From Obrimoposthia wandeli (taxonomy: Eukaryota): a stretch of 64,000 nucleotides of DNA. The DNA is taken from positions 124,001 to 188,000 of the forward strand of contig CDROCS010002056.1 of assembly GCA_977020255.1 (NCBI GenBank), given 5' to 3'. The notes beneath the pieces are model-generated. The model ran no database searches. It was given only the letters and a program-made list of their open reading frames with translations, and had not been told where the DNA came from. Below, piece by piece: positions 15,601 to 64,000 of this stretch. Each line of letters starts with the position of its first letter. Within the stretch, counting starts at the first letter, position 1. Made by a program: the position numbers and the translations under genes.

Positions 15601-18600
15601 AAAAGTTATGATAATTAGAAAAGACGGCGACGGCATTTAAATTTTGATGTTTATATCAACTAATACTTTACTAATATATATTGTTCTGAAATAATAAAAA
15701 AAAACATTTAGTAACTATGAAGTACTTAATTCTTTTGATATATTATGGGGTAATTAAATTTAAGTAAAAGAAAATTACTAAAAATATTAAATTATCTAGC
15801 TTTACAATGAAAATGTCCTAAAAGATTTTAAAAAACAAAAAATTTCACAATTTTTTTGTAAATTTTTTTTGAATGATCAAAATTTCAAAATTATCAAGTA
15901 ATGGAAATTATAAATTTTAGAAATCTGATAAATATCTTCTTACTCTGCTGTGTATAACTCCATTTGTAGTTAGACGAGCCTCTTCTATAGTTATTGTTTC
16001 TACCTCTATCACGTATTGGAAAACGGCGTTGATCTCTCGGGTAAAAGACACTGGAGCCACTAAACTGCTGCTGTTGTTGTTGGGGTTGAGTCTGGACAGT
16101 CCTCTGAATCAGTAAACTATCTACCATTTATGTTTTCTTCATAGGTTTGAAGAAATAAATAGTTTGCCAAAATATATTTAAATTAGATTGTTTATTATAA
16201 ATAACTTATAAATATGATCAACATGATTTTCACATTGATTCAAGTTAATATATTTTTTTATTAAACTGTGGTACCTTGATTTGGAAGTGCAAAATTAAGA
16301 AGTACACAAATACATATTTTTCAGAGCCTGACTTATTATTTAAGTAGAAAATAAGCAAATTACACTAATTAAAATTTCATAAAAAAGAAAAGTTTGCGTC
16401 ATTTTTGAAATTTGAGTTTTTGTTGTTGCAGTTTTTATATACAATTATGCTAAATTTAAAAATGCAGCTATTTTATTCACAAATAGATGGAGTTTATATT
16501 TCTTCTACTTTTTAGTATTTCTTTAGCATCTGGGACGTGTACAAATTATGCAAATATATCCTCAGGTAAAGAGTCTGGTGCTTTTTGCTCTTTAAAAAAG
16601 AAACGTGTTGAAAGTCTCCGTCAATGGAGCAACAAAACAAAAGAATGTCTAGCATTTAGTACTCCAATAATCTGGAGAGAAGAATGTTATTCAACTACGG
16701 ACTGTTACTTCTGTATGAGAAGTCTCATGTTATTATTTCAAAATAATTTTAAACATTTTATGAGTAATTACGAATTCATAAAAAAATCTTATTCCTATTT
16801 TCACAACTAATCAAGTGATCAAAGATAGAAGACTTCATGGCCATCCTCGCGTACCAATGACAATCTTTAAAAGTAAGATATGGGAAGAACTTTATCCTCA
16901 CATAGTTTTCAAAAATGTTGCCAATTATGCTAAATTTAAAAATGCAGCTATTTTATTCACAAATAGATGGAGTTTATATTTCTTCTACTTTTTAGTATTT
17001 CTTTAGCATCTGGGACGTGTACAAATTATGCAAATATATCCTCAGGTAAAGAGTCTGGTGCTTTTTAAAAAAGAAACGTGTTGAAAGTCTCCGTCAATGG
17101 AGCAACAAAACAAAAGAATGTCTAGCATTTAGTACTCCAATAATCTGGAGAGAAGAATGTTATTCAACTACGGACTGTTACTTCTGTATGAGAAGTCTCA
17201 TGTTATTATTTCAAAATAATTTTAAACATTTTATGAGTAATTACGAATTCATAAAAAAATCTTATTCCTATTTTCACAACTAATCAAGTGATCAAAGATA
17301 GAAGACTTCATGGCCATCCTCGCGTACCAATGACAATCTTTAAAAGTAAGATATGGGAAGAACTTTATCCTCACATAGTTTTCAAAAATGTTGCAGTTTT
17401 TATATACAATTATGCTAAATTTAAAAATGCAGCTATTTTATTCACAAATAGATGGAGTTTATATTTCTTCTACTTTTTAGTATTTCTTTAGCATCTGGGA
17501 CGTGTACAAATTATGCAAATATATCCTCAGGTAAAGAGTCTGGTGCTTTTTGCTCTTTAAAAAAGAAACGTGTTGAAAGTCTCCGTCAATGGAGCAACAA
17601 AACAAAAGAATGTCTAGCATTTAGTACTCCAATAATCTGGAGAGAAGAATGTTATTCAACTACGGACTGTTACTTCTGTATGAGAAGTCTCATGTTATTA
17701 TTTCAAAATAATTTTAAACATTTTATGAGTAATTACGAATTCATAAAAAAATCTTATTCCTATTTTCACAACTAATCAAGTGATCAAAGATAGAAGACTT
17801 CATGGCCATCCTCGCGTACCAATGACAATCTTTAAAAGTAAGATATGGGAAGAACTTTATCCTCACATAGTTTTCAAATAATTTCAGAAATGCACCCACG
17901 AAATTTCACTCAACACACATGTACGGTTTTAAAGGACAGTGATAGCCCCCCTCACGAGTGCAAATGACGACACAGAGGACTATCTTTTTGAGAGATTATA
18001 ACAGCGATAAGGTGACGATTACGACAAATAGGTAATTACTAATATATGTCCACACTGCAACTTGTATGGGCCAAACATTTCGGAATGGTAGAGAACTTTT
18101 ATAGGCTATCCTGAAAAGTATGTTTTATATAATGTTAATTTTTTCGATTTTAAAGAAAATACCAAGATTAAAAATTTTGCAAAAAGAAGCATACAATCAA
18201 ATATAACAATGATTACTTTATGTAAGCAGATTTCGAAATTACTCTGTTTATAGATATTTTTTGTTATTTTCGAAATATATCAGGTATTATGGATCCATGC
18301 ATATTTACAGTATTGTTTGTATTAAACCCATTTTAAATGTAAAAAAGATATAGTTTTCGTAGGAAAGTTAAATGTTATGTTATGCAATAATGATGATGAT
18401 GACGATGATATTTGTGATTATGACGGTGATATTTATAGCAGAGCCTGAAATACAGATGAAAAATGATATTTTGTTAACGAATAATAGGAATTGATGTTGA
18501 ATGATTTACGATTATCGAAAGTGAAATAAATAATCAATTCTACAAGTCTTCTTGTCTAATCATCTCATATTCCCTCAAACAAGATCGGCGTAATATATTA

Positions 18601-37100: not shown

Positions 37101-40100
37101 AATATAAGGGAATTCATCCATTTAAAGAAATTATTGTCTTAAGTCTTTACAGGATAAATTTATGACAAAACAGTATTACTCATGATAATTAATTGCTGAT
37201 TAAGAAAATTGACTTAATAAGCAATAAATTTAAATGGGTCAATCAGACCGTATTTCTGTTTGTACATTACGGTACCTTGTTTTATGTGATTATGTTCACG
37301 TTGTTGTGAGGCTATACATATCCAGTGGTTAATATGAATTAAAAGTGGGATTGTAAGTTTAAAGACTAGACAGGATATATGAATGAGAGAAATTGTAGCA
37401 TCACAATGTATTGGAGAATTCTGAAAGATGTAACATAATACACTATTGAGAAAGCAAATATAGGTTTAATGAGTTAGTAGCAAGGATCTAAATAATATTA
37501 ACACGACTTAGAAGAAGATATGACTCAAGAAGCAGTTATATATATACCAGACAATGCTACAAAAAGTTACCACGAATATTAGTCTAATATTTTTGGAGTA
37601 GAAACGAAAAGAAAGATTGGGAGATTCTATTGAAACATTGCTGAAATATGCCCAGCAATTTACAAAAGATTTAGAAACGCAGATGAAATAGCACTAAGGA
37701 TGGATAGTAATATTAATAAACCAATTAAAGTTTATTCTAACATAAGCTAAGCCAATGTGGTGGACTAAAAAGCAGTTGATAGGGACAGCAAACATCAAAT
37801 TGGAAGAAAGTATTTACAAAATTGTACAAGAGAACGTTACAGTGATCAGTGCAGTGCGTATAAGAAATGGTTTGTGGCAGACCAATGGAAAAAAGTAAAT
37901 GACAAAAAGTTGCCTAATAAATGTTTACAGAAATGTCATTAAAATGCAAAAGAAGCATCAAGACAGTATATGAAGACATATTAGTCCGATTGACCTGATC
38001 CATTTGCAAGTTCAACTAAAAATGATGGTGAATTCGTGAGTAGGTAGATGTGGCACTTCTGGAACAAAGCCCCCCCTGAGGACAAAATTTTTTCAAGGTC
38101 AAGTTGAGGACAAAAAATGTAGGTCAAGTTAAGGTCACGGTGAGGTCAAGATGTAGGTCATGACCTCATGAGGTCATGACCCCCCTATGCTCAGGAAAAA
38201 TGTCTTTGTCCTGAAAGACACACATCAAGTAGGGGGATGTGTGTCTTTCAGGACAAAGACATTTTGAGCATACCCCCCCCTTGAGCACAGTTTAAGGTCA
38301 CGGTGAGGACATGACCTCATGAAGTCAACTTAAGGTCACGGTGCGGACAAGATGTAGGTCATGAGGTCAAGTTAAGGTCAATGTACTTTAAGGTCATTAC
38401 GTCATGAGGACAATGTACTTTAAGGTCAAGTTAAGGTCATGATGAGGACAATGTACTTTAAGGTCAACTTAAGGTCATGACGTCATGAGGACAACTTAAG
38501 GTCACGGTGAGGTCAAAAAGATTTTATTTTTAGTAACATTCTTTAAATCTATATATCTTTTTATCTAAAGACTGTATTAACACCAATTCAACAAAATACA
38601 TCTAGTGTGTGTGTGTGTTTTATAATTTAAATTAAATTATCTACTTATAAAATAAAGTATTATATAATTTGATAAATTTATTTAAACTAAATTAAATTAA
38701 ACTATCTACTTATAAAATAAAGTATTATATAATTTGATAATCATGTTTAAACGTTCCTATATCTATCTAACAAAGACAGTCACGTACTGCATCTATATTG
38801 CAAAAGCCTGCAAATTTATGTAAATAAAGACAAGTATTTCAAACACATATATTCCTTAAAATCACAAAGGAGAATAAAAATATGTACAACACATATAAAA
38901 AGTTTATACAACCTCGTCCAGGTATAAAAAGTGACCATAGGCGACTGAACGGTTTTTCTCCACCCACTTGCGCTTATCATCACTACTACTTAAGGCAATT
39001 TTACTTAACCTTACAGTGAAAAGTTGATGATTTAGCGAGCTTATACGTTGTTGTTGTACACGCTCGCTAACGCCACTCTCATATACGGCTAAGTAATTAG
39101 AGTGCCTAATACTCGTCTGTCGGAGACTAATACCTTTCGCTCTCATCTGAGATTCACCTTCTGTAGTCTCTAGGCTATATGATTTTGGTCGTAGAAAAAT
39201 CCCTTGCCTATAACTAAATAATCCCTTACTCTCATCTTTAAATTTTCCTATCGCTGTATTAAGCGTCGTATAAAGCGGATGGGATTTTGGAAATTTCGAG
39301 ATATCCAACAGTCCATCAGCAATCATAGCAGGTAACAGTGATTCTTGAACATTGACATTATTACACTTCAAGAAAAAGCTATCAGTGTCACCCGCTATAA
39401 TTCTAATGTCGCAGTTAAATTGAACTCGATATTTCTCCAACTGCTCATATTGTAGATCATACATACGAAGTTTGCTTAAATCTAATACCGCCTGGCCCAT
39501 GTAACTAGGACGATCCAAAACAATATTTTCCTTATCCAGTAAAACTGCAATAAGATCCGTATCGATTTCGATTGTCCTACGAAAGTGGGCTTTACTGCAA
39601 TAGGTAACCAGCTTCTGTGGAGTATTACAAATCCGGAAATTAATTCTTTTCATTAGATTCTCAATGAGTTTTCAAAATAAAGAATTCACCTTCAGTTTAT
39701 AATAATCCCGCTCGAAATCTGTTGTAGCCGCAGCTCTTTTGAGAGAATTATCCTCAATATATTTTGAAAAAACATTAGTTTGTTCAAACTGTATTGCTCT
39801 ATATACAAAATCTACCTTAGCACCAAGTCTAACGTACATTTGTAGTAATCTAGAATGCACAACATAATGTTTCTTAGGGTAATGCGTTAATAACAATTTT
39901 TCAGTCTTACACCCTGGTGGACGCTGTTTAATGGGAGCAAGGGGAAGATCGTCGAATTTATTATGAAGCTCGAAGGGAATGGATAAATCTATTTCCAATA
40001 AATGAGCGAAGCGACTACAGGATAAATCTACTGATTTTAAACTGGAAATAATATTCCCCAACTCTAACCGATCAGTCACCCAGGAAAAGTTACCACAAGG

Positions 40101-43100
40101 TAAAAACTGGGACATAGCCCACCCGTACAAATTATTTAAATCAATGTACAAAAGTTCTGTACCATTGATGGCGTCAACGCGGTGTTCATTAACAAATGTC
40201 ATACCCCCGCGAATCCCAGACCGGAAGAGTCGGTACATTTCTGGATCCTGTATTAGCTCGACTCGCACAAAGGGAGCAGAAGAAGAAGCCGGACGAAGCA
40301 GGGATTTGAAAGCACTCGCGAAAGTCAGTCCTGGAAATAAAAATATTTATTAAAATCATTGTGAAAATCATTGTGAAAATCATTACTTTGAAAATCATCT
40401 ATCTAACAAAGACAGTCTCGCATCTATATTGCAAATACTTGCATCTTTATGCAATCAATAGTAACAAGTACTACATTTATTCTTATACATGTATATATAT
40501 ATGTGTTAGTGTCTAAAATTAGAAAAAGTTAGTAAAATACAAACCAGGGATGGAGAAGAAATTGAGTGGCTCCAATCCATCGTCAGCAATGGCCTTGGTC
40601 CGGAATGCTGTAAACACGTCTGCTAGAAGGTAGACGTCCATCTTCATATAGACCAGCATATAGTCCCAGAGCGATGAGTAGTCGCTCTGAGTCCAGACCA
40701 TCTTCGCCATTTCATATTGTGCTGGCTTGATCTTCTCATCCCACTTTGGCGGTAAGCTGGTGATTGCGCGAAGAGCAGTCTCTGATACTGCCATATCGTA
40801 TGGGAAGATTCCCTTGGCGCTCACCAGATGTTGCGGGAAGACCGAATGTGTAAGAGGAGTCACACCCAGGTTTTCCACAAGTTTTTCTAAGCTGCTGTTC
40901 AAAAATTGAAGGGAATCGATGAAACGTATACAGACTCCTCCAATATACACCATCATAGCCTGGAATTTCTCTGTTGATTGAGGTATAACAGATACATTCC
41001 AGTCGGGAAAATTGCATAGTGCGTGCTTCAATATATGGAGCATGTCATAACCCATAAGATTATGAAAAATGACGGGAAAAGATCGATTGATTCTCCTTGA
41101 TAAGTTGCATTTCGTATGCGCTGCTCCCAGGTATTCGCCAGTCATGTGATCGTGATCTCGAACTTTGTTTGCGAGTTTCTTCTTACACAGGTAACAGATT
41201 CTTGCTGCATTGAAACTCGATACCTGTTCCTGTGTGAGTTGTCGCATCACCTCGATCGCATGCTTCTTGTACCATGGGAGAACAACCTCTTTCGCCAAGT
41301 CCTCTAATTTTTGCAAAAAGGATACCACACAAGATTCCCCGGTAAAGACCGAGTAATCATGTGTATACCCTCTCGTGGCTGCAACGGGAGACATGAGCAT
41401 ACCGGCCGAGATTGGAAGTTGAATCTGATGGTGGATTCCATGTGGCGGCAGCACAGCCTCAAAGTCCGCGTAAACAGCAAAAGGCGGAGAAATCGTTTTT
41501 GAAAAGTCCTTAAACTCAATATGCTTCTCTGTAGGCATTGAATAAATAATTTGTTGATTGATGCTTGCTTATATACTATTTTCGAGCTAGTATTAAGCCA
41601 ATCAGATTCATTCATTATTTAAACCAACCAGATTAATTTAAAACAGAATAGTTTACTGACAGATGTGAGTAGTTGAATTTTCATTAATATTTAAATAATC
41701 CAAACTAGCTGCAAAGCATTTCTTGTATGCACAATGCTCGCCATGTTTAATATATGGACAATTGATATTTGATGGATTTAATTGTTTTAATGTTTTCGAG
41801 TAATTTATCACTCTAAATTCAGGAAAATATTTATTGATTGTCTTTATTTTAGCTCCATTATTTTCATCCAAAACATAGAAAATTGATTTGGATACATCAC
41901 AACAACGTTTTATTTCCTCAGTTATTTCTTGTATCTTGAAATAACTATTACCATCAACTAGTTTTAGTCGATGGTAATGCTTAATGAGATATCTATTTAT
42001 TTTTCTTGATTTTCTATTCATCATGTCCCATATGGGTTGCATTTTAAAAACATAATGTTTAGGATAGAAGATTGCATCCACATCTATTATACATAGTTCT
42101 TTTATTACAAATTCAGTATTATTATCAATAAAAGCTTCAAAATCAATAAAATAAACAGACATTTTTATAGCAATAATTTTATTTGATATTGTTTATATCT
42201 ATTGTTTATGCTTTAACCAAAGCAGAGAGAGTTGTCCACATGACTGTGTTAAAACATTTTGATAATGTTTCTTACTAAAATGTACTTTCTTTCCAGAATC
42301 AAGTACTGTAGATACTAATTTAGAAGGGTAATATATCCCAAAGGGGTCAAAAACAAAGATTTCATTTTCTTTAACATGTATTGCAATCCAATGTTCACCA
42401 CGCAAATTAGATGAATGTGTATTGATTACATATCCACCTAGTCGAGTCAAAGACTGATCAAGGCTGTAGACTCCATTGAAACACGTACCGAGTAGTTTTC
42501 TTCCGCTTTTTGTTATCTCGTCCGAACTAGAATATATATTAATTAATAAATTCAAACTGACTTACTTCATTTATATATCTTCTTTATTGTTTTCATTCTG
42601 TTTATACTAGTACTGTTCCTCCCTTGGTAATTTGAACCTCAGAATCGAATACTCCATAGATTATAATATTAGTAGGGTGTTCAAGTGCTTTTGAAAACTT
42701 GATTTCTACTTTCAAATTTACCTGTTTAGGGATTTGAGCTTGATTAATATCGAAATCAGGAGAGAGAACAAATGTGAACAGTGTATACTTGTCCTTGAAA
42801 TCAGTCATTGAAATTCCAATATTAGCATCCTTATCCAAATGACCAAGATTTCTAATTAAAGATTGCACATAAGAAAACACATAATCATCGTTTTCAAAGT
42901 CATTCGTATAAGATTCTTGATAATCAATATTTCGTGCAAGTTTAATTGAACTCACATTCATGTGTCCAAATTGAGAAACCTCATTTTTAGACTCACCTCC
43001 ATAGGTAGACGTGTTTTGGAAAGCAATTAAAACAAAGTTTGGAAGTTGCATATCACCAAAAATCTGATCCTTGTAATAAGATAGTGCTCCCGTAGGGATA

Positions 43101-46100
43101 GCGTGAGAAACAAGATTAGTTTTTCTAATAGGATAACATGCATTTTGCTTCTCCAACCCCATTCGATGTGCAACAAGTACAGATGGTTCCACCTTTACTC
43201 GTCGAACCAGCAGTTTTGCTTCCGTAATCTCAATTGCGGTTTTAATAGTATCAGCGCAAACAACACTAAAACCTACTGGATTTCTTTTCATTCGAATATG
43301 TGCACTTACACCGGGTAAAATATACTTTGGTTGCTTAAAGAAATCCAAATGGAGACTCCCACAAAGTGACAATACTTTAGACTTTGCAATCGAAGCAATT
43401 CTTCTTTTTTCATCATTGTCAAACCCAATTGCATCAAGATTAATCAATTTCGTATCATTACCGTAATTCAACAATGTTTCAATCATTGCTTTATGACTGT
43501 AACTAGTATTATTTCCCTCAACTTTCACATTATTGAGACTGAGAATCACATCCTTGAAAAGAGTATGCAACATGTAATTAGCTGATTTGATATCCATACC
43601 ATCATCCAAATCACCTCCACCTTCCTTTGTAACTTTCAATTTAACGAGAAATCAACTATCATTCAAATCAAGATATTGAGTATTGGATCCATTAATATTG
43701 AATTCTAAATCCGGAGAAGATGTCCCGTTAACCGTATTTGTTGGAAATATTTCTTCAAAACTAGCACTATCAACCACAACCTGAGGTATAGGTTTATCGA
43801 ATATACACAATTCAGTTTTAGCACAACTCATTACTTAAAAATTGTTCCACCTAGTTTCAAACGTTTGAGTGAACGTACATCCTCTTGATTATAATGATGC
43901 ATCTTTAACTTTAATGTCGGTAAATCATATTTTTGATTTGGTAATTCCGATTCATAAAACATACTTTCAATAGGAGCTTCTTTCATACCGTATCTTAATG
44001 CTAAACTTTTATTATCAATTTCTAAATTGAAAGCTTGTCCCGTAGTGCGAGTTATACAAATTTTGTTTTCGCCGCTAAGGTAAATAACATATTTACTATT
44101 AATTGGAGTTAAATACTTGACGAAAAATTCTCCATGTTTCATTTTCACACCAGCTTCAACTTCAGTTTTTATTCTTTTCTCCGCAACATAATCTATAATT
44201 GACCCTCCTTTAATGGATAGAGGAGAGTAATTGAAAGAAAATTCCGTCAGAGCAGCTTCCCAATGCCCAGGTAAATTGATTGAGCTTTGATAATCAATAC
44301 TAAAACTATTAGCAGTATTATTCGGCTGAGTTAATGGTGAACCATTACTTGGTAATACAACATACATTGAGTTCATTCTATTTGAGAAGCTAATATCCAA
44401 CTAGGTTCAGTATATCCATGCCACTTAACATGATATTGTTTATGCTTTCCTCTACCTTTTGTCTCTAAAATTTCTTGGATTCTATATACATTTGATTTCT
44501 CAGGCAAGACTTGTAATTCCTCATGATAAAATTTACCCGTGATTACATTATTGGTTTCATCCTCAATGAAATACATTACCGGCATACGTTTATTATCAAT
44601 TTTAGTTATACGAAATACTTCATCGCTCCAATTCTCTTTGAAATTCTTTATAAAAGGAGTAGTACTAATTTGAGAAATACGTACATAATCACCAACTTTA
44701 TACTTGGGTTTCCGCGCAACTTGACTTTGGTTACGGCGTTGCCAAATTTCCATAGCATTCTCATCTGTAACATCAACGGGTCTCTTTCGGTCTAATGATG
44801 AGTGTTGACTATGATTGTATGCATGTATTATTTGAGGTAAAACAGTAACCCAGGACTTATTTCCCTGCTTTGTGAAATACGTTTTCAAACGATCTCTCAA
44901 TGTTCGATTAAAACGTTCAACTAAAGCGGCTTTATATTGGGAAAATACTGAGTAATGATTAATATTATGTTTTTTCAATAGTGTTTCAACATGTTTATTA
45001 TAAAACTCCTTTCCACTATCCGTTTGGAAATTTCTTGGTTTTATTTCTTTAATCAAAAGCTTCATTGCGGTTAAAACATCGGTACCAGACTTAGACTTTA
45101 ATGGAATAGCTCGCGCGAATCTGCTAAAGACATCAACACAAGTTAAAATATATCGATATCCGTCGTTAATACTCGCATACGGAATCATTTCCATCAAATC
45201 TGCTTGCCATAAATCATTCGGGCCGCTCGTTTTGTATGATCTCGTTGGGAACCGACGTCTCATTGGTTTGTTTAAGCTGTAAGATAATTGATTTCTCAAC
45301 CACGCCTGAGTTTCCTGCTTTGTCTTCTTTGACTCTTTTGCTAATTTTGAAACCCCTGTGTAACCAACGGGATGACTTGGATCGAACCATATTTTCTCCA
45401 TTGCAGCAAGACGATTTGATTTTTAAATTGAATTTAGGAATAGATGGAAGTGATCCCATATATAAATTCATATTATTGATTCGAATTTATGTTTATAATC
45501 ATCGGTTTATTAGTCTACTAGCAAGTGCACTAACTATTGAGCTAATAATTGGTACGAGAAATCCTAAAAATCCACCACTTTGCTTATAAAGCAACTTACG
45601 TTTACCGATTCGTGTTTTGGCATGAAACAAAGCAAGTAGAGGTTTCTTATGCCGATTCAGGTTAGCCTTGACAATTATTTTACCAGAAACTATTTTCTGT
45701 ATCATATTAAGTAAATCATCAATTACAAAAGTAGGGAATGATTTAAGAATAGCTGGGCGGCGAATAGCAGGTGCACGCATGAGAGAATTGAAATAGGCAA
45801 TACTCCTAGATTTCTTAACAACAGTTCTTTTCGATTTTTGAGCAACCATTTTCCTTGCACTTAAAACTGATTTAATCAATTTTTTAACTTCGGGTTTAAC
45901 AGTTTCCTTTTTAAAATTCATCTTCTCAAAACTGGTTTCTTTGTTTGTTTATAGACGGTTATTCCCGATGGATTGAATACATCAGTTCTAACTCTAAAGT
46001 CATCGGGACAATCTTGAGTAAAATCAATAAAAATGTATCCATGAGGAATAGTAGTTGCATCTTGAAATGAATCAATTAAAAACTTTCTATTATTCGGGTA

Positions 46101-49100
46101 AGCTTGTCTTGAAACAAATTCAACAACCGTCTGATCACGTGGATTCTTGAAGAGAACAAGGTAATGTACATTTAAATTACGAGTTCTATGGTTCCCTCCT
46201 TGATGAAATAGATTTTGTGTGATGAAAATAACAGTTACTTACCGATGTCGAGCTATTTTAGTGAATAAATTATTGAGATCACTCTCTTTATTTACTTCTT
46301 GATATAAATCATCAATAACAATAACATCATGTCGTTGTAATCGCTCAGACCAATTATCATCGAATCCATTAATGACTTTTATATTTTTGATTTTCTTAAA
46401 CTCTTTACTGGTTAAACCAGCTTCTCCATCTCCTCCCTGATGCATGTATATTTTATTAAACTTAAAACTAAAGTATTTATTATTTTGCAGTAATTTACAT
46501 ACAAAGTGTGTTTTCCCACTACCACTAGGACCTACAATCTGAAAAACTGAATTATTTTTTAAGTTCATATTAAAAATATTAGATTATCGGGATAATGTTT
46601 ATAAGACAAAACTATTTAAAATATTTTATTACGAAACATCCAGCAACAAACAATAAAAAACTCTTCTCGTAGAAAAAGCTCCTTTTCTCTTCTTTGTTTG
46701 CGAGTTTCTTCTGATTGTATCCCTGAATGAGAAGATTGACTGCCTTGTCGTGCACCATTCTTCTTACGTGCTCCTCCAGGGGTAGATTTGAGACATCAAT
46801 GAGTTGTAGGACATCTGGTTGTATGACATTCTTCGAGATGAAGACACTAAAGACACTGACTAATAAAGACACTAAAGACACTGACTAATAAAGACACTGA
46901 TTAAAGATACAGACGAATAAAATTTACACATGATAACGATTAAAAATACGTATTTGATGAAGCATAGCTTCATTAGGAGCAGCAATAGTCCGTTTAGCTT
47001 TAACAAGATTCGAAGCAGCAGTAACACCAATCGAATGAGATAAAAATGCAATAACAATGCAAGCAGCATGTAAACTACCATAATGACTACATACTAAAAT
47101 ATTACCACCATTTTCGATAGTTTCTTTAATTATATTATTAGTCTGTTTATAATACTTCATTATTGTTTCTCCTAATTTTGAGTTTACAAAGACAGAAGTA
47201 TATTTTAATTTCTTATAAGATATTTTATCCAGTATAGATGTATTGATTACATGAGTGAAATTGGAATTCAAAAGATTAGTTTCATCAAACCCATCTCGAT
47301 AATTACCAATATATAATTGATTTACTAAAATCTCACTCATCGCTGTTTTGTTTAACTTTTCTACATTAAGTTGAGTAAATCTAGCACTAAACAAACTATC
47401 AAAATGATGGGTCATGTGGTTCATTTCCATACTCGAAGCATGAGCTATTATGGGTTCCATAAAAGCCAAAGCATTTAAAAAATCTATCCGTCTCTTATCT
47501 TCAATAATTGGATCTATAATAATTTCTTCTTCTATCGTCACTTCATCAATAGTTTCTTCTCTTCTTATAACTGTTGTTATTGTTGCTGGTGGTGATGATG
47601 TTACTGATGATGTTGCTGGCGATGATGTTGTTGGCGATGATATTGCTGGTAGTGATGATGTTGCTGGCGATGATGTTGTTGGCGATGATATTGCTGGTAG
47701 TGATGATGTTGCTGGCAATGATGTTGCTTCTGGTGCTGAATTGATTTTCTCCATTTTATCAATTCCGAGTCAATTTAGTCTTATATATTAAACAAGGTTA
47801 GATTTCATTGGAGCATCAGTTTCATCATATGATTTGATTGGAGTATTATTCAATCTTTCCATTGTACTTAACATCTCATGTAAATGTAGTTGATGACGTA
47901 ACCTAAAGAGTTAAATAAACTACATATAAATATTACTCATGATTATTTTTCCTAATTAAAGCATTGAGAATAACTGAAGCAAGATCTTTTAATGCATCCT
48001 GAACCTCTTTACATTCAATAATTTCATCCATTTTATGATAAAGCAAATCAAATATTGTTTATAACCCATGAAAAATCTATTTTTAGACCACAACTATTTG
48101 CAACATTACAACGTTTGCAACTATTTGCAAGTAATGACATGTGATGTCTTTGTCTTAGTATAAACAATATTTTGATAATGATTTTATTGAAAATGGATAA
48201 TCAAAATAATCAAAATAATGAAAGTAGAGCTAGTACATACATAGGTTCCGGTAGTAATTTATATTCTAATATGAATTATAATAGAAATAATCAGAGAGAA
48301 CATATTAATCCATTAAGTCAAACAATAACAAGTCCTACGCGCGTAACCGAAGAACGTGAACCCTTTAAGGATATGACTAATACTAGACGATAAAGAAGAA
48401 TATTAACCAATTGAGACTAATCGATTTTCATAAACAAGAATATCGACCAATTAGAATCGAGCTTTAGAGGATAAACAATTGAATATTTCAATTTATAATT
48501 GTCAATATGAATTTCGAAAAGCTATATCAACCTATGCATACATATTATGGATATGAGATGCACTTTTTGAAGAAAGCTCATAACTATAATTTTATTTTTC
48601 CTGTCAACATCGAGCCGCTTAAATTTGATTTTGAAATATCAAATTTGACTTCTGTGGATAAAGAGAGAATCAATATTCTCTTGACTCAATTCGGAATCAA
48701 CTATGTGCTTCAGGAAAACAAATTCGTAATCAAAGGATCAACTGCCACTTTCAAGCATGAGAATGGAACAATATTCGATGGACCTCCTCCTAAGCTAGAA
48801 TGGATTCTCTCAATCAGAATTCAAGGTTGCAAGATCGGGCCCAGTGGATTTGAAACTCCGATATGGAAAATAATTGATGCTGTTAGAGTTGACTAATAAA
48901 TATTTGTGTCTTTATTTGTATTATTTTATATATATAAACAATAGTGATACTTTAATATTTATTATGAAAATGACTAAAAAACCTACTAAATCATTAAAGA
49001 CTAAGGTTAAAAAGACTATGAGTAAAAAGACTATGAGTAAAAAGAAAATCATGGAGGGTTTGGGTATTCATATGATGGCAGCAAATCTTTTAGGTAGATG

Positions 49101-49370
49101 GTTTGGCGGAGTTGATAAAAAAGCTATAAAGCACAAAAAGAATGTGGATTATTTGAGAGGTATACAAAATCAGAAACGAGTGCAAAAAGGAGATGGTATA
49201 CAAAAAGGGGATGGTATGCTTGATATTTTTGTAAAATTAGATAAACTTACAAAAGCATTTGAAAAGGATCCTAGTGCCTATCTTGGTCCAAAACTAAACA
49301 TTTTAGCAAACCAACCAAAAACTTTGTAATTACATTGCAATATAGATGCAGAGTGTCTTTGTTAGACACT

Positions 49371-49412
<42 letters not shown>

Positions 49413-52400
49413 AATAAATGTTACTATTGATTACATAAAGATGCAAGTATTTGCAATATAGCTGCAGTACGTGACTGTCTTTGTTAAACATAGGAACGTT
49501 TAAACATGATTAACAAATTATATAATACTTTATTTTATAAGTAGATAGTTTAATTTAATTTAGTTTAAATAAATTTATCAAATTATATAATACTTTATTT
49601 TATAAGTAGATAATTTAATTTAAATTATAAAACACACACACACACTAGATGTATTTTGTTGAATTGGTGTTAATACAGTCTTTAGATAAAAATATATATA
49701 GATTTAAAGAATGTTACAAAAAATAGAATCTTTTTGAACTCACCGTGACCTTAAGTTGTCCTCATGACGTCATGACCTTAAGTTGACCTTAAAGTACATT
49801 GTCCTCATCATGAGCTTAACTTGACCTTAAAGTACATTGTCCTCATGACGTCATGACCTTAAGTTGACCTTAAAGTACATTGACCTTAACTTGACCTCAT
49901 GACCTACATCTTGTCCGCACCGTGACCTTAAGTTGACCTCATGAGGTCATGTCCTCACCGTGACCTTAAACTGTGCTCAAGGGGGGGGGTATGCTCAAAA
50001 TGTCTTTGTCCTGAAAGACACACATCCCCCTACTTGATGTGTGTCTTTCAGGACAAAGACATTTTTCCTGAGCATAGGGGGGGTCATGACCTCATGAGGT
50101 CATGACCTACATCTTGACCTCACCGTGACCTTAACTTGACCTACATTTTTTGTCCTCAACTTGACCTTAAAAAATTTTGTCCTCAGGGGGGGGGCTTTGT
50201 TCCAGAAGTGCCACATCTACCTACTTTCGTGAACAATTCTGGTGATAATTTATAAAGGAGACAATACAATAAAAATGAATGCCTTATTGTATGAAGTCTG
50301 CATCACAAGTTATATTAGTTAGGCTGTTAGATTAGTTGAGATTCGACGGAATTTAAAGTAATATCTAAATCGGAGAACTTGGGAAAATATTGAAAGAAAT
50401 GGTATGTAAAAAGGTATATATATATTTATATATCAGAAAAAGTGACAAAGCGTGGCAGGTAACTCTTGAGTAGGCAAGTTGACGTTTATGTCGATTAGGG
50501 TATCGAGTTCCACACCATTGCCGATGAGGTCTAGCTCTTTTAAGCTTTTGAACTCATAGAGGTATTCGAGTGTATTCAAGACAGTACTCGTTGACATTGA
50601 TGCTAGGTATTCGTTATAACCAAAATCTACTGTATACGATTTGTGTTAAATCAAAACATGTAGTTTATAAGAAAATTTCAGTTTTTAAAATTATATCAAT
50701 TGATTAATGAACACAACTCAGGTTATATTCAATATCCAACATCAATAACAATCACTTCAATTGTTTTGCTTGTCGTAGATAAGCAACAATAAGTTACTGT
50801 ATATATATATTGATATCAGAGTTTTGTTCCACATTGTTGATAAATGTTACCTTCAAATTTGAGAAAGATCAGGGTAAGCCCTTCAATAAGTCACAGTATG
50901 TTAGAAACTCATAAGTTGGAGACTAGATTAACTAGTGAAACAATGCTGAAGCCAATATAGGGAATATTTAGTATTTAAAATATTAAATTTGATTGAAAAA
51001 AACTGACTTCATATTTAGAAAGTTTCCATTGTAGATTAGGGAAAACTAGGCGATAAATATACATAAACCGGTATTTTTATTTAGCTAAACTAGGAAAGCG
51101 GTATGTTGACAAAGACGGGAATGAGTACGAAGTCGTGGTAGATCCTCTAACTGGTAAGAAATATAAAAGGTGGGCACTATAGATTTCTTGAAAATTATCT
51201 TAAAACAATAAATCGAATTTTCATGACATTTTCCATTTTTTAGAATTCTACAAAAAGCAGATGGTCTTCCTCCAAAGTTCAGAACCAAAAGTGGAAGAGT
51301 AATAACTGAGAAAGACATACAGAAAAGGAAAAACCTCAAACAAGGAAAAAGGAATGAAGACAGCAATAGTGACTTCAGGTTTGTCTGATGATAATTTATT
51401 TTGATGTTGTGTTTATTAAAAAAACATCTGATATTTGACATTTCCATCTCGAGTATCCTTTATAAATATTCTATAACTTTAAAATAAAATGTTTAAACAA
51501 ATTAGACAATTAGTATACCGTCAAATATCGGCCTAATGTTTTCCCTAAACTGTATTCAAATCCAGGAAGAGCTTACTCCTCCAAATGAGTGCTTGCTTAT
51601 CGGACAATCTCATTTATATGACAAATGTCAAGGCTTGAAGTAGTATATTTTATAAATTTTATTATTATTGCTAAAAATATAATTAATAATTTTCTAAATA
51701 GTTTTATTCATGAATTATTTTAAATCATTCAGTTATTCAGTAAAATTTCTCCCACGCACCTATACATATGGGTATGGTAGGTCTTATGCAGCATACCTGG
51801 TTTAGTTCCGTGTCAGATTTAATTCAGCTTCCATCTATGTCTTCATGGGATGGCACCGCCCGGGTTGGTTCCTGTGCAACGTTGCTGGTATTGATGTTGA
51901 ACTCATTCCATCTAGAGAAGTTATATTACAATAAAAAATCTAAATATGATCTCGAGTTTATCTTTGCTATTCGTTTGATGGCTGGGTGGTTTCTTTCGAC
52001 TATTTCATTTTCTTTGAGTCGGTAAGCACAACGTAAAGTTTTTTCATATCTCATTTCAAACAGACATTTCAAACAATTTCTGATGGAAAACGTAAGCCAT
52101 TCTCCATTAACAGTTTAATCACAGGTCCTCTTTATCTGAATAATTCGTCAATAATCAAAGAATTCCATACGAAAATATTTCTTGACATACAGTCAATCAA
52201 TTTCTTTTCGTAATAAGTTATGTTGATTTCTAGTTATGACTATTTAAAAAAAATATTTATGTGTTTCAATTTTGATTTAGGATATATATATATATATATA
52301 AATTGTCTCCCATAAAATTGAGACTATTGTCGATCCAATTTGTCAGAATCCTAGACGACAATCAATGCATTTAGAAAAGCAAGTGGATGAAATGATTGAA

Positions 52401-57917: not shown

Positions 57918-59170
57918 TGAATTTAATTAAAAGCAATCCGAACATTTACAAAGTCTCATTAATGAAAAAAGATTTTGATCTGAATTTTATATTACAACAT
58001 TTAAAATAAATTTCACTTCAAATATTTTTCATTTAATTTAAAGTTATTCTTAAGTGTTGAATTGTTTTTAAAAAAAGTAATTACATTTTAATAACTATTG
58101 ATTCAATGTCTACAAAAAATAAATAATTTAATTATATAATTAAATTATAATATAGTAGGTATAATATGTGTGACTTCTGGCACAAAACCACCCCCCTCCG
58201 GGGGGTCTGAGTAATGTCTTTGTGGTAAAAATCTGTGACTCATCGATGACTCATTACGTGATCTCATGAAGTCAAGGTCGCTCTTGAATGTGGTTCTTTG
58301 AGGTGGTTCTTTAAGATAAGTCTTTGAGATGGTTCTTTGAGGTGGTTCTTTGAAGTAGTTTTTTAAGGTAGTTTTTTGAGGTGGTTCTTTAATATGGTTA
58401 TTCGAAGGGGGTTCTTACAAAGTTAACCTTCAAGGTTCTAAAACCTTCAAAAATACATTTTTTCTACTTTTTAAAGTTATATATGATAGGCTTGGTCTGA
58501 CCTTGGTTAGATCTTCGAGGGTTAGACCTTCAAAGATCAAAATAATCAACAAAAAAAAATTTCCAAAAAGTCAAAAATATATTTTTAAAATAATTTTTGT
58601 TTAAATTTTCAAAAAATGTTCAAAATTCAAAAATTTTTAAAAACTTTGAATATTTATATTTTTTTACTTTGTATTAATAAACAATATGAGATTATCTCAT
58701 TGTTAATGATGATATTACCATATGTTTATTGTTTGTATATGTACATGTAACGATAAGATCTCAGCTAACTTTTGTATTCATCCTAATCTCGATTGTATAT
58801 GTATATGTATTTATATATTTAAGTAATGATGAGATCTCAAACAACTGTTATATGTCAAGTGCTGTGTTAAAGTGAAGAGTTAAGCATCACTAGCATATGT
58901 GCATAAGTGTATTCATCAATGAAGTAACATCTGGTTTATCTTAATTAGATTTTATCAGCAGCTGTCATGTTCAAGTGATCTGTTTATATTTAACGACAGC
59001 TGCTATTTTGATTAATTATTAATAATAAAAATTGTAAATGATTTTTTTAAATTAATTTTACTTCAAAAAACTTCAAAATTTTTTTTACTTCATATTTTTA
59101 AAACATATATTTCTTAAAATCACAAAGGAGAGCGAGAAATGGAGAGTAAAAATATATACACATAAAAAGA

Positions 59171-61940
59171 TCATATAATTTCGCCCTAATATAAAAAGTG
59201 TCCATAGGCAACTGATCGATTTTTAGTAATCTACTTGCGTTTATCATCACTACTGCTTAAGACAATTTTAATTAACCTTTCAGTAAAATGTAGATGATTT
59301 AAGAAGCTTATACGTTGTTGTTGTACACGCTCGTTACAATCAGTCTCATAGATGGCTAAGTAATTAGAATGTCTACCTTTAGCTCTCATTTGAGATTCCC
59401 CTTCTGTAGTCTAAGCTATATGATTTTGTCGTAGAAAAATACCCTGCCTATAACTAATAAATCCCTTGCTCTCGTATTTAAATTTTCTAATCGCTGTATT
59501 AACCGTTGTATAAAGCGGATTGGTTTTTGGAAATTTTGAGGTATCCAACAGTCCATCAGCATTCATAGTCGGTAACAGTGATTCTTGAACATTTACATTA
59601 TTACACTTCAAGAAAAAACTATCAGTGTCCCCTGCTCTAATTTTAATATCACAGTTAAATTGAGCTCGATATTTATCCAACTGTATATATTGTAGCTCAT
59701 ACATACGAAGTTTGCTTAAATCTAATACTACCTGACCTATATAACTAGGACGATCCAAAACAATATTTTCTTTATTCAGTAGAACTGCTATAAGGTTCGA
59801 ATCGATTTCAATTGTTCTACGAAAGGGGGCTTTATTGCAATAGGTTACCAGCTTCTGTGGAATATTACAAATCCAAAGAATAAATATTTTCATTAGATTC
59901 TCAATGTGTTTTCTAAATAAAGAATTCACCCTTAGTTTATAATAATCTTGCTCGAAATCTGTTGTAGCTGCAGTTCTTTTAAGATAATTTTATACAAAAT
60001 ATACCTTAGCACCAAGTCTAACTTACATTTGCAGCAATCTAGAATGTACAACATATTGTTTCTTAGGGTAATAATTTTTCAGTCTTACACCCTGGTGAAC
60101 GCTGTTTAATTGGAGCAAGGGGGAGATCGTCAAATTTATTATGTAGCTTATTGGGTATAAATAAATCTATTTCCAATAAATCCACTGATTTTTAACTAGA
60201 AATAATATTCCCCAACTCTAATCGATCAGTTACCCAGGAAAAGTTATCACAAGGCAAAAGCTGGGACATCGCCCACCTGTATAAGTTATTTACACCTATA
60301 TACAAAAGTTCGGTACCGTTGACAACATCCACCTTGTGTTCGTTCACGAAGGTCATACCCCCTTGAATTCCGGACCGAAAGAGACGATACATATTCAGAT
60401 CCTGGATGAGCTCCACTTGTATAGAAAAAGCAGCAGCATAGGTATCAGTATCAGCATCCGCCCGAAGCAGTGACTTGAAGACCGATGCAAAAGTTAGTTA
60501 TGTAAAGAGAAATATAGATAAAAATATCAATAAAACATTTACTAAAATCATTACTTAGTAAATATTTACTTATCATTACTTATTAAAAATTAGTAAAATA
60601 TAAAGATTCAAACCAGGTATGGAGAAGAAATTTAGTGATTCCAGCCCGTCGTCTGCAATAGCCTTGATCCGGAATTCTGTAAAAAAACATCGGCTAACAG
60701 TTATATGTCCATCTTCATGTATACCAGCATATAATCCCAGTGCGATTTGCAAACACTCTGAGTCCAGACCTTCTTCGCCATCTCATACTGTGCTGGTTTA
60801 ATCTTCTTGCTTTAAATCGGTGGTAAGCTAATGATAGCACGGAGAACAGTCTCTGATACTGCCATATCGTATGGAAAGATCCCCTAGGCGCTCACCAGAT
60901 GTTGAGGGAAGACATAATGTGTTAGAGGAGTAACACCAAGGTTTTCAACAAGTTTCTCAAGCCCGCTATTCAAAAAATTCAATGAATCTATAAAGCGAAT
61001 AGAGACTCATTCAATATGCACCATCATATCCTAAAATCTCTCTGTTGATTGAGGTTTCACATAGACACTCCAGTGCAGAAATTAAATCAACGTTTGTTTC
61101 CGTATGTGGTGCACATCATAACCCATCAAATTGTGAAAAATGACGGGAAAAGAGCGATTCACTCTCCTTGATAAGTTGCATTTCGAATGCGCAGCTCCGA
61201 GGTACTCTTCAGTCATGTGATCATGGTTGTGAACTTTATTCACTAGCTTCTTCTTACACAAGTATCAGATTCTCGCAGCATTGAAACTCGATACCTGATC
61301 TAGTGTAAATGATCGTATAACTTCGATGGCTTGATTTATACCAATGGAGTACAACTTCTTTCGCCAACTCCTCTAACTTATGCAAAAAGAATACTACACA
61401 ATATTCTCCTTTAAAAAGCGAGTAATCGTGTGTTTACCCTGTTGTGACTGCAACGAGAGACATGCGCATACCAGCTGAGATTGGTAACTGGATCTGATGA
61501 TGAATTCCATGTGGTGGTAACACAGCCTCAAAGACGGAGAAATTGTTTTGGAAAAGTCCTTAAACTCAATATGCTTCTCTGTAAGCATTGAATAAAGTGT
61601 TGAATGTTCCAAATTCATCCTACAGAGTGGAACGTGCTTGACGTAACTTATCGGTCTCCGGAACCCATGGAGACACTTATGGCACCAAGTACACTGGATA
61701 CGATTAGATACACCTCTCTTCCTATAATTAAGTAGCCTATTTAGTTTAGGAATAGCGACATAATTAGAATTATCATTATTTTCTAAACGGAAAAGAATAA
61801 TTTGCGTAGCGTCCACATATGGATTTGTAAAGATATCTCAATCCGTTTGTACATTAGAAAACCTTTTTAATGTAAATACGTTGATTGAGATAGATGGGTT
61901 CTTTCTCTCAAATCGCAGTATATTATATAGACGCATCGGC
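59171..61940 (-). pseudogene. pPolB: pPolB relic of copy C, multiple frameshifts, retains more N-terminus than copy B
   Basis: AGDTDSFF, NNLYRWAM, CHKCLHGF..HVPLC; intron donor at the same codon as in copy B (~60614). Confidence 0.9.
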
Positions 61941-62374
61941 ATCTCATCCTTTTCAAAAACTAATCAAAAACTATATCTCAATATATTGATTAACGCACTG
62001 AAGATTAGTATGAAATACTTCGCGAAAAAGCACAGCTAAGATGCTGTATAGAAAACAAAAGTGTTAGAGTTCTGCACATTGATTACGCAATGTGAGAGCG
62101 CTAACTCGGATGGGGTAGGTATATAACTACTCACCTGGAGATAGTTCATTGTTGTTGTTTTAGTCACAACAAACGAAATCTACAGGAAGCGGGTCACTAC
62201 CCAATTACTGACACTCTGTGAGTAATTCTCAATTTTCTTGTTGATGGCATCTACTCCTGCATCTATAAATCCATAGTAGTATATAGTGTCGGTAATAACT
62301 CAAAGCGACAATGAGACCTCCCTGGGGGATTTGTAACTTTGAGTTAGAACCAAAATTATAGGCTTTAAAATATG

Positions 62375-62598
62375 TCAGACCAATTATCATAAATCCATTA
62401 ATGACTTTTATATTTTTTTATTTTCTTAAACTCTTTACTGGTTAAACCTGCTTCTCCATCGCCTCCCGGATGCCAATAAATCTTATTAAACTTAAAAGTA
62501 AAGTATTTCTTATTTTGCAGTAACTTACATAAAAAATGAGTTTTCCCACTACCTCTAGAACCTACAATTTGAAAAACTGAATTATTTTTAAAGTTCAT
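62375..62598 (-). pseudogene. Packaging ATPase N-terminal relic of copy C
   Basis: MNFKNNSVFQIVGSRGSGKTHF, truncated. Confidence 0.85.
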
Positions 62599-63075
62599 AT
62601 TAAAAATATTAGATTTTTGGAAAAATGTTTATAAGACAAAGTTACTTAAAATATTTTATTTAAATACATCAACCAAAAAACTATAAAAACTCTTCTCCCA
62701 GAAAAAGCTTCTTTTCATCGCGTACTCTTCTTTCTTCGCATACTCTTCTTTCTTTTGATTGTACCCCAGAATGAGACGATCGAGTGCTTTGTTGGGAATC
62801 ATTCTTCTTACGTGCTCCTCCAGCGGTAGATCTGTTGCATCAATGAGTCTTTAAACATCTTCTTCTAAAACGTTTTTCGAGATGAAGCTCTTCGCTGCTT
62901 TATCAACATCTTGTTTGAAATATTTGGGAGTAGACATAATAATAAAGTAAGATTAAAAAGTATTATGTTTATATACTATACAACTAAAATTTTATTGACT
63001 GCTGATTAACAAAGACACTGACTAATAAAGATAATAACTAACAAAGACATTGATGAATAAAATTGACATATGATA

Positions 63076-63806
63076 TTAATTAAAAATACGTATTTGATTA
63101 AGTATAGCTTCATTCGGAGAAGCTATAGACAGTTTAGCTTTAACAAGATTAGAAGCAGCAGTAACACCCACTGAAGGGGATAAAAATTTAATAACAATGC
63201 AAGCAGCATGTAAACTACCATAATGACCACATACTAAAATCTTACCACCATTTTTGATAGTTTCATTTATTATTTTATTAATCAGTTTATAATATTTCAT
63301 TATTGTTTCTCCTAATTTTGAGTTTACAAACACAGAAGTATACTTTAATTTTTTATAAGATATCTTATTCACTATAGATGTATTGATTACATGAGTGAAT
63401 TCGGATTTCAGAAGTTCAGTTTCATCAAAAGCATCTCGATAATTACCCATATATAATTGATTTACTAAAATCTCACTCATTTTTGTTTTGTTTAAATTTT
63501 CTACATTAAGTTGAGTAAATCTAGCACTAAACAAACTATCAGAAAGATGGGTCATATGGTTCATTTCCATACTGGAAGCATGAGCTATTATGGGTTCCAT
63601 AAAAGCCAAAGCATTTAAAAAATCTAATCGTTTCCTATCTTCTTCAATAATTGTCTTCTGAAAATTAACTTCTTCTATCTTCACTTCATCAATAGTTTCT
63701 TCTCTTCTCATCGCTGTTGGTGATGTTGTTGCTGGTGAATTTGCTGCTGGTATGCCATTGCTGATGGTTATGTTGTTGCTGCTGATGTATCATTAAATTT
63801 CTCCAT
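63076..63806 (-). pseudogene. Pseudophosphatase of copy C (DSP-fold domain open, N-terminal repeat region disrupted)
   Basis: ILVCGHYGSLHAACIV; highly similar to 46924-47754 across the domain. Confidence 0.8.
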
Positions 63807-64000
63807 ATTTCAATTCAGAGTTGAAAGTTTTACTCTTAAGAGTAAATCATTGGAGTATCAGTTTCATCATAATTCTATTCGCATGATTTGATTGGATTAT
63901 TTTTCAACTTTTCCAGTTTACTTTTCCATTTTATGATAATATATAGTTGATGATGTAACCTAAATAATGAGTTAAATAAAGTAGTAATAAACATTATTCA

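Follow-up and report, generated by a model that had tools for sequence, protein, structure and literature searches.

What are dense arrays of nuclear-receptor half-sites doing at the two ends of a mobile element? The question is raised by a 64,000-nucleotide stretch of DNA from Obrimoposthia wandeli (GenBank assembly GCA_977020255.1, contig CDROCS010002056.1, positions 124,001 to 188,000, forward strand), called the window throughout, which contains a 12.2 kb Maverick element (38039 to 50225) flanked by a 6-bp target duplication, TTCGTG. A preliminary description had read the left terminal inverted repeat (TIR) of this element as a helically phased array of response elements and proposed a hormone- or retinoid-responsive switch. 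Its assignment to the Mavericks is borne out by the TIRs, the target duplication and a gene content that includes a polymerase, an integrase, an ATPase open reading frame (ORF), a capsid protein and a phosphatase. For the arrays we favor another explanation, to which we assign a probability of about 60%: the arrays of host-factor motifs would form an enhancer-type control region, predicted from sequence to be bound by TR-like, RXR-like or orphan nuclear receptors of the host, with no retinoid or ecdysone needed.

Half-site arrays in the terminal repeats

The left TIR contains two half-site arrays separated by a dyad (Table 1), and the counts and positions previously given for it were reproduced exactly. 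The interval 38090–38515 holds 18 AGGTCA and two TGACCT hexamers, and seven AGGACA lie in 38060–38520. Direct repeats of AGGTCA with a 5-nt spacer (DR5) start at 38121, 38132, 38364, 38423, 38461 and 38499; a direct repeat with a 2-nt spacer (DR2) is found at 38356, the palindrome AGGTCATGACCT at 38155, TCAAGGTCA at 38093 and a cAMP-response element (CRE) at 38478. The array is mirrored in the right TIR with one extra unit, as had been claimed. Dinucleotide shuffling of 38090–38515 (2000 shuffles) gave a mean of 0.72 hexamers and a maximum of four, and never produced a DR5; the hexamer density elsewhere in the window is 0.24 per kb.

The family to which the element belongs (family A) is large and young, with 3,322 exact 24-nt termini in the genome and at least 118 integrase copies at 97–100% identity. 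Two samples of its ends were compared: 27 of the 28 nearest other TIRs (one lacks the exact terminus), referred to as the near TIRs, and 98 termini, on 43 contigs, out of the first 100 by contig order. At least three AGG(T/A)CA half-sites are present in 85 of the 98 termini and at least ten in 61, and their orientation is one-way (863 forward, 149 reverse). The recurring unit is an octamer, T(A/G)AGG(T/A)CA, which accounts for 20 of the 25 half-sites in the left TIR and for 70% of the 1291 in the sample. TAAGGTCA is the commonest octamer (357 of 1291), AGGACA makes up about a third of the half-sites and the hexamer is preceded by TG in 489 cases.

DR5 is the favored direct repeat, with 14 different 5-nt spacers recurring. 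The 1181 steps between neighboring half-sites comprise 401 of 11 nt (DR5), 258 of 16 nt, 69 of 12 nt, 54 of 18 nt and 51 of 14 nt; among short steps there are 20 of 6 nt, ten of 8 nt (DR2), two of 9 nt (DR3), none of 7 nt (DR1) and only 12 of 10 nt (DR4), the preferred dimer spacing of vertebrate TR–RXR. DR5 occurs in 27 of 27 near TIRs and 61 of the 98 sampled termini, the palindrome in 27 of 27 and 52 of 98, and the CRE in 27 of 27 near TIRs. The 11-bp helical phase of the preliminary description is retained between neighbors, where 12 of the 26 steps in the two window arrays are of 11 nt (degenerate half-sites counted), but not over the whole array: phase coherence at 10.5 nt is no better than chance (R of 0.35 with n = 8 and 0.08 with n = 16; p < 0.05 in three of 61 TIRs). 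Since 16-nt steps flip the face, the array does not lie on a single helical face, and single-face phasing was rejected; the steps fit a grid of about 5.4 nt.

Three further sites were rejected as design features of the window copy. The word TCAAGGTCA, taken earlier as an NR5A-type site, is exact at 38093 but private: it is kept in none of the 27 near TIRs and is absent from the right TIR, the word itself occurring in other contexts in 25 of the 98 termini. The DR2 is present as described but recurs in only two of the 27 near TIRs (six of the 98 termini). The supposed inverted repeat with a 1-nt spacer (IR1), of the EcR/FXR type, is an imperfect word; no perfect IR1 was found in the 125 TIRs of both samples, and the host genome gave no clear EcR (see below).

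Copies differ through gain, loss and reordering of whole words of 6–18 nt, and comparison of two sets of contigs revealed unit skips inside the arrays; array 2 varies between copies in the number and order of its units. Mutations that arise after insertion should strike all sites alike, whereas variants carried by transposing lineages are filtered. Across the 98 termini, rare one-base variants number, per 1000 sites, 22.2 in hexamers and 20.4 in spacers. Variant words present on at least five of the 43 contigs comprise five spacer types (54 occurrences) and no hexamer type (Fisher p = 0.004), and at a cut-off of three contigs nine spacer and six hexamer types (p = 0.04), p-values that are optimistic because the test takes T/A at position 4 as free, ancestry is shared and unit swaps are counted several times. 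In an alignment anchored on the window copy, common alleles occupy 23 of 127 spacer columns versus three of 118 hexamer columns. Because the lineage-wide variants fall in spacers while rare mutations hit both classes equally, the hexamer looks to be under selection. The earlier claim that hexamers are kept while spacers change is thereby supported.

Motif exchange among lineages and families

Beyond what had been noted before, the dyad splits two arrays, sister lineages carry AP-1- and E2F-type arrays, and a similar array occurs in a second family. One sister-lineage TIR lies in the window (Table 1). Among 30 related loci, 20 have a terminus, 18 of them distinct, with 2–12 AP-1 sites and 0–7 AGGTCA; some have AP-1 sites only. 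The AP-1 sites have ATGA(C/G)TCAT flanks and are spaced by 11 nt (46 times) or 12 nt (28 times), and the core proteins of these elements are 81–90% identical to those of the window element where measured. At least two AP-1 sites are found in 27 of the 98 sampled termini and the word TTT(G/C)CGCGAAA, which we take to be an E2F-type site, in 22; most core proteins of the lineage bearing it are 97–99% identical to those of the window element. CRE-type 10-nt words vary little.

Family B, with a polymerase 51–54% identical to that of family A, has 1–12 RGGTCA in the TIRs of all 17 termini read (from 20 stretches; shuffle mean below 0.5). Its arrays consist of tandem units with GGGTCA, to which AGGTCA is added in some copies, and the tandem unit repeats the subterminal 30 nt exactly in inverted form (30/30; L328–L347), so that each family-B end could fold back in several registers. 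Close to the terminus there is a second dyad.

With 15,725 exact termini, family C outnumbers every other Maverick family found; its integrase is about 70% identical in DNA sequence, and its TIRs are short. A subset of its copies bears an AGGTCA/AP-1 array that is inverted, lies inside one end and has new spacers, a DR5 with a new spacer among its words, and no AGGACA. Of 22 such arrays on 13 contigs, 18 sit 326–640 nt inside the terminus with the hexamers pointing outwards; CCAAT is found on the inner side in 20 and a TATA box in 18, and an inward ORF adjoins. None of the 22 has a family-A terminus upstream. One array word has 2,514 matches in the genome. Natural copies of families A and C present the array in both orientations and positions, and shared words suggest that it moved to family C from a family-A lineage, a direction that we infer. 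An integrase ORF in the window (6910–7887) had been tentatively tied to the AP-1-type TIR at 12335; this was rejected, the ORF belonging to a family-C copy with its terminus at 4050.

Genome-wide, perfect DR5 number 26,459, versus 209 for the reversed control, and the first 100 listed mostly have spacers found in these elements. Integrase homologues in other hosts number 1,257 (best 68%); viral contigs yielded one related locus and then none. The motif cluster was not seen in 58 metagenome loci (at most three hexamers per 400 nt), which are loci without a recognizable TIR.

Host receptors and competing explanations

A zf-C4 search of the host genome gave 57 DNA-binding-domain matches, all of which were inspected; scoring was by single exons, on a possibly incomplete assembly. 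From their domain sequences we take some of these to be COUP, HNF4, TR2/4, NR4A, NR5A, TLL, PNR and HR96 receptors. One match scores best with TR (78 bits) and one with RXR (85 bits). Three genes bear the TR N-terminal signature of PMC2045677 and two are RXR-like; the host thus has receptors that could bind the half-sites, a point that the preliminary description had wanted confirmed. Two-domain receptors are found on four contigs, one with the CEACK P-box of PMC1810520. Among the 57 matches none is clearly a RAR or an EcR, within the limits of exon-wise scoring and of the assembly; the one fragment whose top match is RAR reaches 43 bits, versus 41–42 for NR4A, EcR and TR, with roughly half of its residues identical, and its contig carries the TR signature. 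RAR, EcR, ROR and E75 are reported missing in flatworms, and the receptor set of the host looks flatworm-like, matching the published table for free-living species (PMC8363021).

The reported binding behavior of such receptors is permissive. Schistosoma TRalpha binds a half-site, DR0–DR5 and the same palindrome, as monomer or homodimer and without spacing preference, and Schistosoma RXR1 likewise binds half-site, DR0–DR5 and palindrome (PMC2045677). The receptor cannot be told from spacer length alone (PMC6555819, PMC2045677). In chromatin immunoprecipitation of human TRbeta, the peaks yield TGAGGTCA and AGGnCA, AP-1 and CREB sites being close by (PMC3928038). Thyroid hormones reportedly do not activate the TRs of flatworms (PMC7827873). 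On the side of the element, Pfam detected no nuclear-receptor or bZIP domain in 18 ORFs of the window or in 12 others taken from fuller copies or family C, and the only sequence-specific DNA-binding domain found in the ORFs scanned is a TBP repeat; the element-encoded binder that had been considered earlier as an alternative could still be among several small unassigned ORFs.

In the mechanism that we propose, slippage or unequal exchange would generate array variants, and selection on transposing lineages would retain those that recruit host factors. The main predicted contact is the T(A/G)AGG(T/A)CA half-site. All ORFs point outwards from a center near 48 kb (a minus-strand block and two plus-strand ORFs), so both TIR arrays are 3' of every gene; with all genes read towards the TIRs, the arrays would act at a distance. 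They may set the cells or states in which the inner TATA-type gene promoters fire, lineages being tuned to receptor state, stress (AP-1, CRE) or the cell cycle (E2F-type), and bound receptors could either activate or repress. A wider proposal, rather doubtful as a whole, is that Maverick ends are exchangeable enhancer cassettes that competing lineages retune to differing host signals, with receptor arrays for development or latency, AP-1/CRE for wounding and E2F-type words for dividing stem cells; the cassette would move between families, and the more than 26,000 seeded DR5 would titrate or redirect TR, RXR and COUP receptors.

Besides the optimistic p-values, several observations weigh against an enhancer role. 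In family A the arrays follow every gene on its 3' side and occupy the extreme ends, the place of origins. Subterminal sequence is copied by the family-A dyad arms and by the entire family-B unit, which hints at a role in end processing; the dyad arms match the subterminal 25 nt at 17 of 25 positions (0 of 500 shuffles as good in an ungapped test), a resemblance that is not significant in a gapped terminus-versus-dyad alignment (score 26–27, shuffles reaching 33). No array is present at 26 of 30 family-C ends, so that it is dispensable in that family, and the 22 family-C arrays show three recurrent hexamer degenerations versus three in spacers. Conversion among units could also favor the commonest word, and some spacers (AGTCA, AGTTA) are themselves hexamers in degenerate form, an outcome to be expected of slippage. 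Finally, TGAGGTCA, TGACGTCA and TGAGTCA differ by one step each, so that bZIP proteins alone could read part of the array.

If the arrays instead serve the DNA ends, bound NR2C/NR2F receptors or an element protein would pair the ends, aid protein-primed initiation or promote recombination. Arrays that are terminal, mirrored and 3' of all genes, the copied subterminal sequence and the strong hairpin of the dyad are all in keeping with such a role, as are host domains that we take to be COUP-like and TR2/4-like. In cells with alternative lengthening of telomeres (ALT), GGGTCA repeats are bound by COUP-TFII and TR4, which link telomeres to one another (PMC6785246). However, the dyad is missing or replaced in many copies, its core pattern being matched in only 32 of the 98 termini, most family-C ends manage with no array, and the scanned ORFs offer no sequence-specific DNA-binding domain except the TBP repeat. 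Because AP-1 or E2F-type words replace the array in sister lineages and the family-C array is inverted, internal and beside a promoter, a movable enhancer fits better than an origin, and we consider the DNA-end role unlikely as the main function. The two roles can coexist, since the homologous regions (hrs) of baculoviruses are both origins and enhancers (PMC13513840).

The remaining explanations concern what reads the arrays, or whether anything does. A ligand-triggered switch, in which the element is activated as the hormone rises by RAR–RXR at DR5, or by a receptor of RXR, TR or HR96 type carrying a host lipid, would account for the prevalence of DR5 and its recurrence in family C, for the frequent palindrome and for the RXR-like and TR-like genes, and human cytomegalovirus (HCMV) employs DR5 elements in this way (PMC7690695). 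The RAR–RXR assignment of the preliminary description thus keeps its spacing but lacks a clear host RAR. With neither a clear RAR nor a clear EcR among the 57 matches, both receptors reported missing in flatworms, flatworm TRs reported to be unresponsive to thyroid hormones and spacing not diagnostic of the receptor, a switch by retinoids or ecdysone is unlikely; the NR5A, DR2 and IR1 sites being private, rare or imperfect, ligand triggering in general seems very unlikely. A nearly neutral minisatellite, produced by slippage on a 5–6-nt word and concerted evolution, with incidental likeness to host motifs, would explain the frequent unit gains and losses, the 5.4-nt grid and the spacers that resemble hexamers; gene conversion would mend the most repeated word most often, and the family-C hexamers do decay recurrently. 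It sits poorly with four textbook motif classes (nuclear-receptor half-site, AP-1, CRE, E2F-type) arrayed within a single TIR family, with steps of 11 nt recurring among unrelated words, with a hexamer that persists in differing contexts and three families, and with an inverted array that reached about 2,500 family-C matches, and we judge it decidedly improbable. It is most improbable of all that the array is mainly an enhancer for bZIP proteins (CREB/ATF/AP-1), with AGGTCA as part of TGAGGTCA-type variant CREs and receptors uninvolved. TG is the commonest context before the hexamer, near TIRs always contain a CRE, pure AP-1 lineages exist and the CRE-type words are stable, but the commonest octamer is TAAGGTCA, the AGGACA third of the half-sites lacks a GTCA half-site, and the DR0 and GGGTCA forms of families B and C are not bZIP sites.

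Gene content and known systems

Table 1. Features of the Maverick element and of related elements in the window
Feature	Position	Strand	Remarks
Family-C copy	4050 onwards	+	integrase 6910–7887 (-)
Sister-lineage TIR	12105–12335	-	same terminus and dyad; two AGGTCA and three exact AP-1 sites replace the long array
Target-site duplication TTCGTG, left copy	38033–38038	+	right copy 50226–50231
Left TIR	38039–38821	+	about 780 nt; begins AGTAGG (AGTAGG...CCTACT ends)
Fixed terminal core	38039–38070	+	common to all family lineages; 3,322 exact 24-nt genome matches
Array 1	38077–38176	+	eight AGG(T/A)CA half-sites, steps 17, 11, 14, 11, 11, 12, 16; holds AGGTCATGACCT palindrome
Central dyad	38186–38272	.	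87 nt; 37-bp stem and 9-nt loop if single-stranded; z -9.4
Array 2	38293–38515	+	16 AGG(T/A)CA half-sites and CRE-type words; steps 11, 16, 8, 12 nt
AT-rich inner TIR part	38516–38821	+	contains 65-nt duplication
Protein-primed DNA polymerase B	38904–41538	-	split into three ORFs (38904–39653, 39672–40238, 40519–41538)
Conserved 169-aa ORF	41653–42162	-	acidic N-terminal motifs
Double jelly-roll major capsid protein	42602–43597	-	ESM Atlas score 0.96 to PF21738 clusters
rve integrase	44373–45401	-	342 aa, open; PF00665 E 5e-14
P-loop ATPase ORF	46239–46568	-	weak Pox_A32 match, E 0.006
Dual-specificity phosphatase	46924–47754	-	accessory gene
Two ORFs	48507–49329	+	129 and 150 aa, directed at right TIR
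Right TIR	49433–50225	-	mirrored arrays, two CREs, without TCAAGGTCA
Extra 11-nt unit in right TIR array	49863–49873		

The terminal core is the most conserved column class of the TIR alignment and is likely to be the replication and integration end. The polymerase gene is broken in the window copy, PF03175 being matched in two of its ORFs (E 9e-12 and 1e-10). The 169-aa ORF has homologues in other families at 41–45% identity; a Maelstrom-domain match (score 0.87, under the reliable range) is a weak lead. The capsid ORF has no direct Pfam match, and its product is 331 aa long in the window copy versus 409 aa in another. The P-loop ORF is probably the packaging ATPase. For an adenain-type protease, PF00770 matched nothing in the genome in a search that lacked a positive control.

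Most element ORFs are preceded at short distance by a word of the TATAAACA type. TATAAACA itself lies shortly 5' of several ORFs (46603, 45953, 45497 and 42197 on the minus strand, 48159 on the plus strand), with nine exact copies in the element; similar words recur in the metagenome relatives L243 and L246, and it is a candidate conserved promoter of Maverick genes. In L370, L380 and L384 a short GT...AG stretch that looks like a small intron follows an upstream ATG and precedes the polymerase frame.

Fuller copies of the element have a gene for a protein of 116 aa that contains one TBP repeat (PF00352, E 6e-13; L379:2632–2979, plus strand; L385:2842–3189, minus strand). At least 150 open copies exist at 97–100% identity, and the window copy lacks the gene in the interval 47754–48507. 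This half TBP could be the Maverick's own promoter factor or a decoy. No literature pairing a TBP-like gene with Mavericks was found; 'TBP' is named in a figure legend for related viruses (PMC8502044). Beside it lies a fragmented accessory gene of the inhibitor-of-apoptosis (IAP) type, with BIR and RING domains (L379:1376–1870, plus strand; L385:3455–4186, minus strand), which is missing from the window copy; IAP cargo is known from adintoviruses and Mavericks (PMC8097293, PMC8502044).

Other structures were noted in passing. TBP-like matches also occur in pairs about 8 kb apart on opposite strands, as in mirror-image large elements, in which the gene block is duplicated and inverted between two termini (L368/L369; G000:C66:147000–166520). 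Many family-C terminus pairs only about 165–175 nt apart (L402/L403, L413/L414, L419/L420, L423/L424) resemble derivatives of the miniature inverted-repeat transposable element type. Within the window, a diverged relative of the element occupies 59093–64000, with 77–87% DNA identity over the polymerase, ATPase and phosphatase regions, and at 16424–17878 a 473-nt unit is repeated three times in tandem, with 96% identity.

The left end of adenovirus, which comprises the inverted terminal repeat and the packaging and enhancer region, carries ATF and E2F sites. Adenoviruses are relatives of Mavericks with linear, protein-primed DNA, and this terminus doubles as a strong cis-regulatory element, but it has few sites in a fixed layout upstream of E1A, with no tandem expansion or swapping of motif classes (bioRxiv 10.1101/2025.07.20.665756). 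The HCMV major immediate-early enhancer, linked to latency and reactivation, also repeats host sites (two DR5, DR1 elements, five CREs in 19-bp repeats, AP-1) but is a single upstream enhancer–promoter that uses liganded RAR–RXR (PMC7690695), whereas the integrating Maverick has about 25 half-sites per end, in both TIRs and 3' of its genes, a motif class that varies and a host with no clear RAR. Baculovirus hrs share variable repeat arrays with palindromes and CRE or TPA-response element (TRE) motifs, as enhancers and origins whose potency tracks motif number; they differ in being dispersed, not terminal, in a circular genome, with units of about 72 bp and a palindrome bound by viral IE1, and nuclear-receptor arrays are not described in the portion consulted (PMC13513840). 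ALT telomeres are likewise DNA ends densely packed with RGGTCA, open to binding and bridging by orphan receptors, but their repeats have a 6-nt period, belong to cancer cells and are not mixed with AP-1, CRE or E2F-type words in a mobile element (PMC6785246). Alu elements spread DR2 retinoic-acid response elements, one per Alu and in a host with RAR (PMC1785376); here the selected-looking arrays would be for the element's own use.

Mavericks and Polintons in general have TIRs of 46–1,447 bp, a 6-bp target duplication and AG-type ends, and share polymerase, integrase, ATPase and capsid genes; in the portions consulted, their TIRs are described by 6-bp end motifs only, with no factor-binding arrays (PMC8097293, PMC8502044). 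Our literature search, whose scope did not extend to most subscription papers, the founding papers of 2006–2007 or Repbase, found no report of such arrays in Maverick TIRs. Repeated host sites in viral enhancers are already known; their occurrence as arrays in Maverick TIRs appears, from the literature covered, to be new.

Maverick virions have not been seen so far (PMC8097293). The TIR follows a grammar that can be read, varies naturally across thousands of copies, shows a sign of hexamer selection and contains a module apparently transferred to another family; its arrays name candidate host factors and conditions (wounding, proliferation, receptor state) for the appearance of element RNA. 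The family seems to have strewn tens of thousands of receptor sites across the host genome. If the cassette proposal is true, it would provide the first cis-regulatory model of when an animal Maverick switches on.

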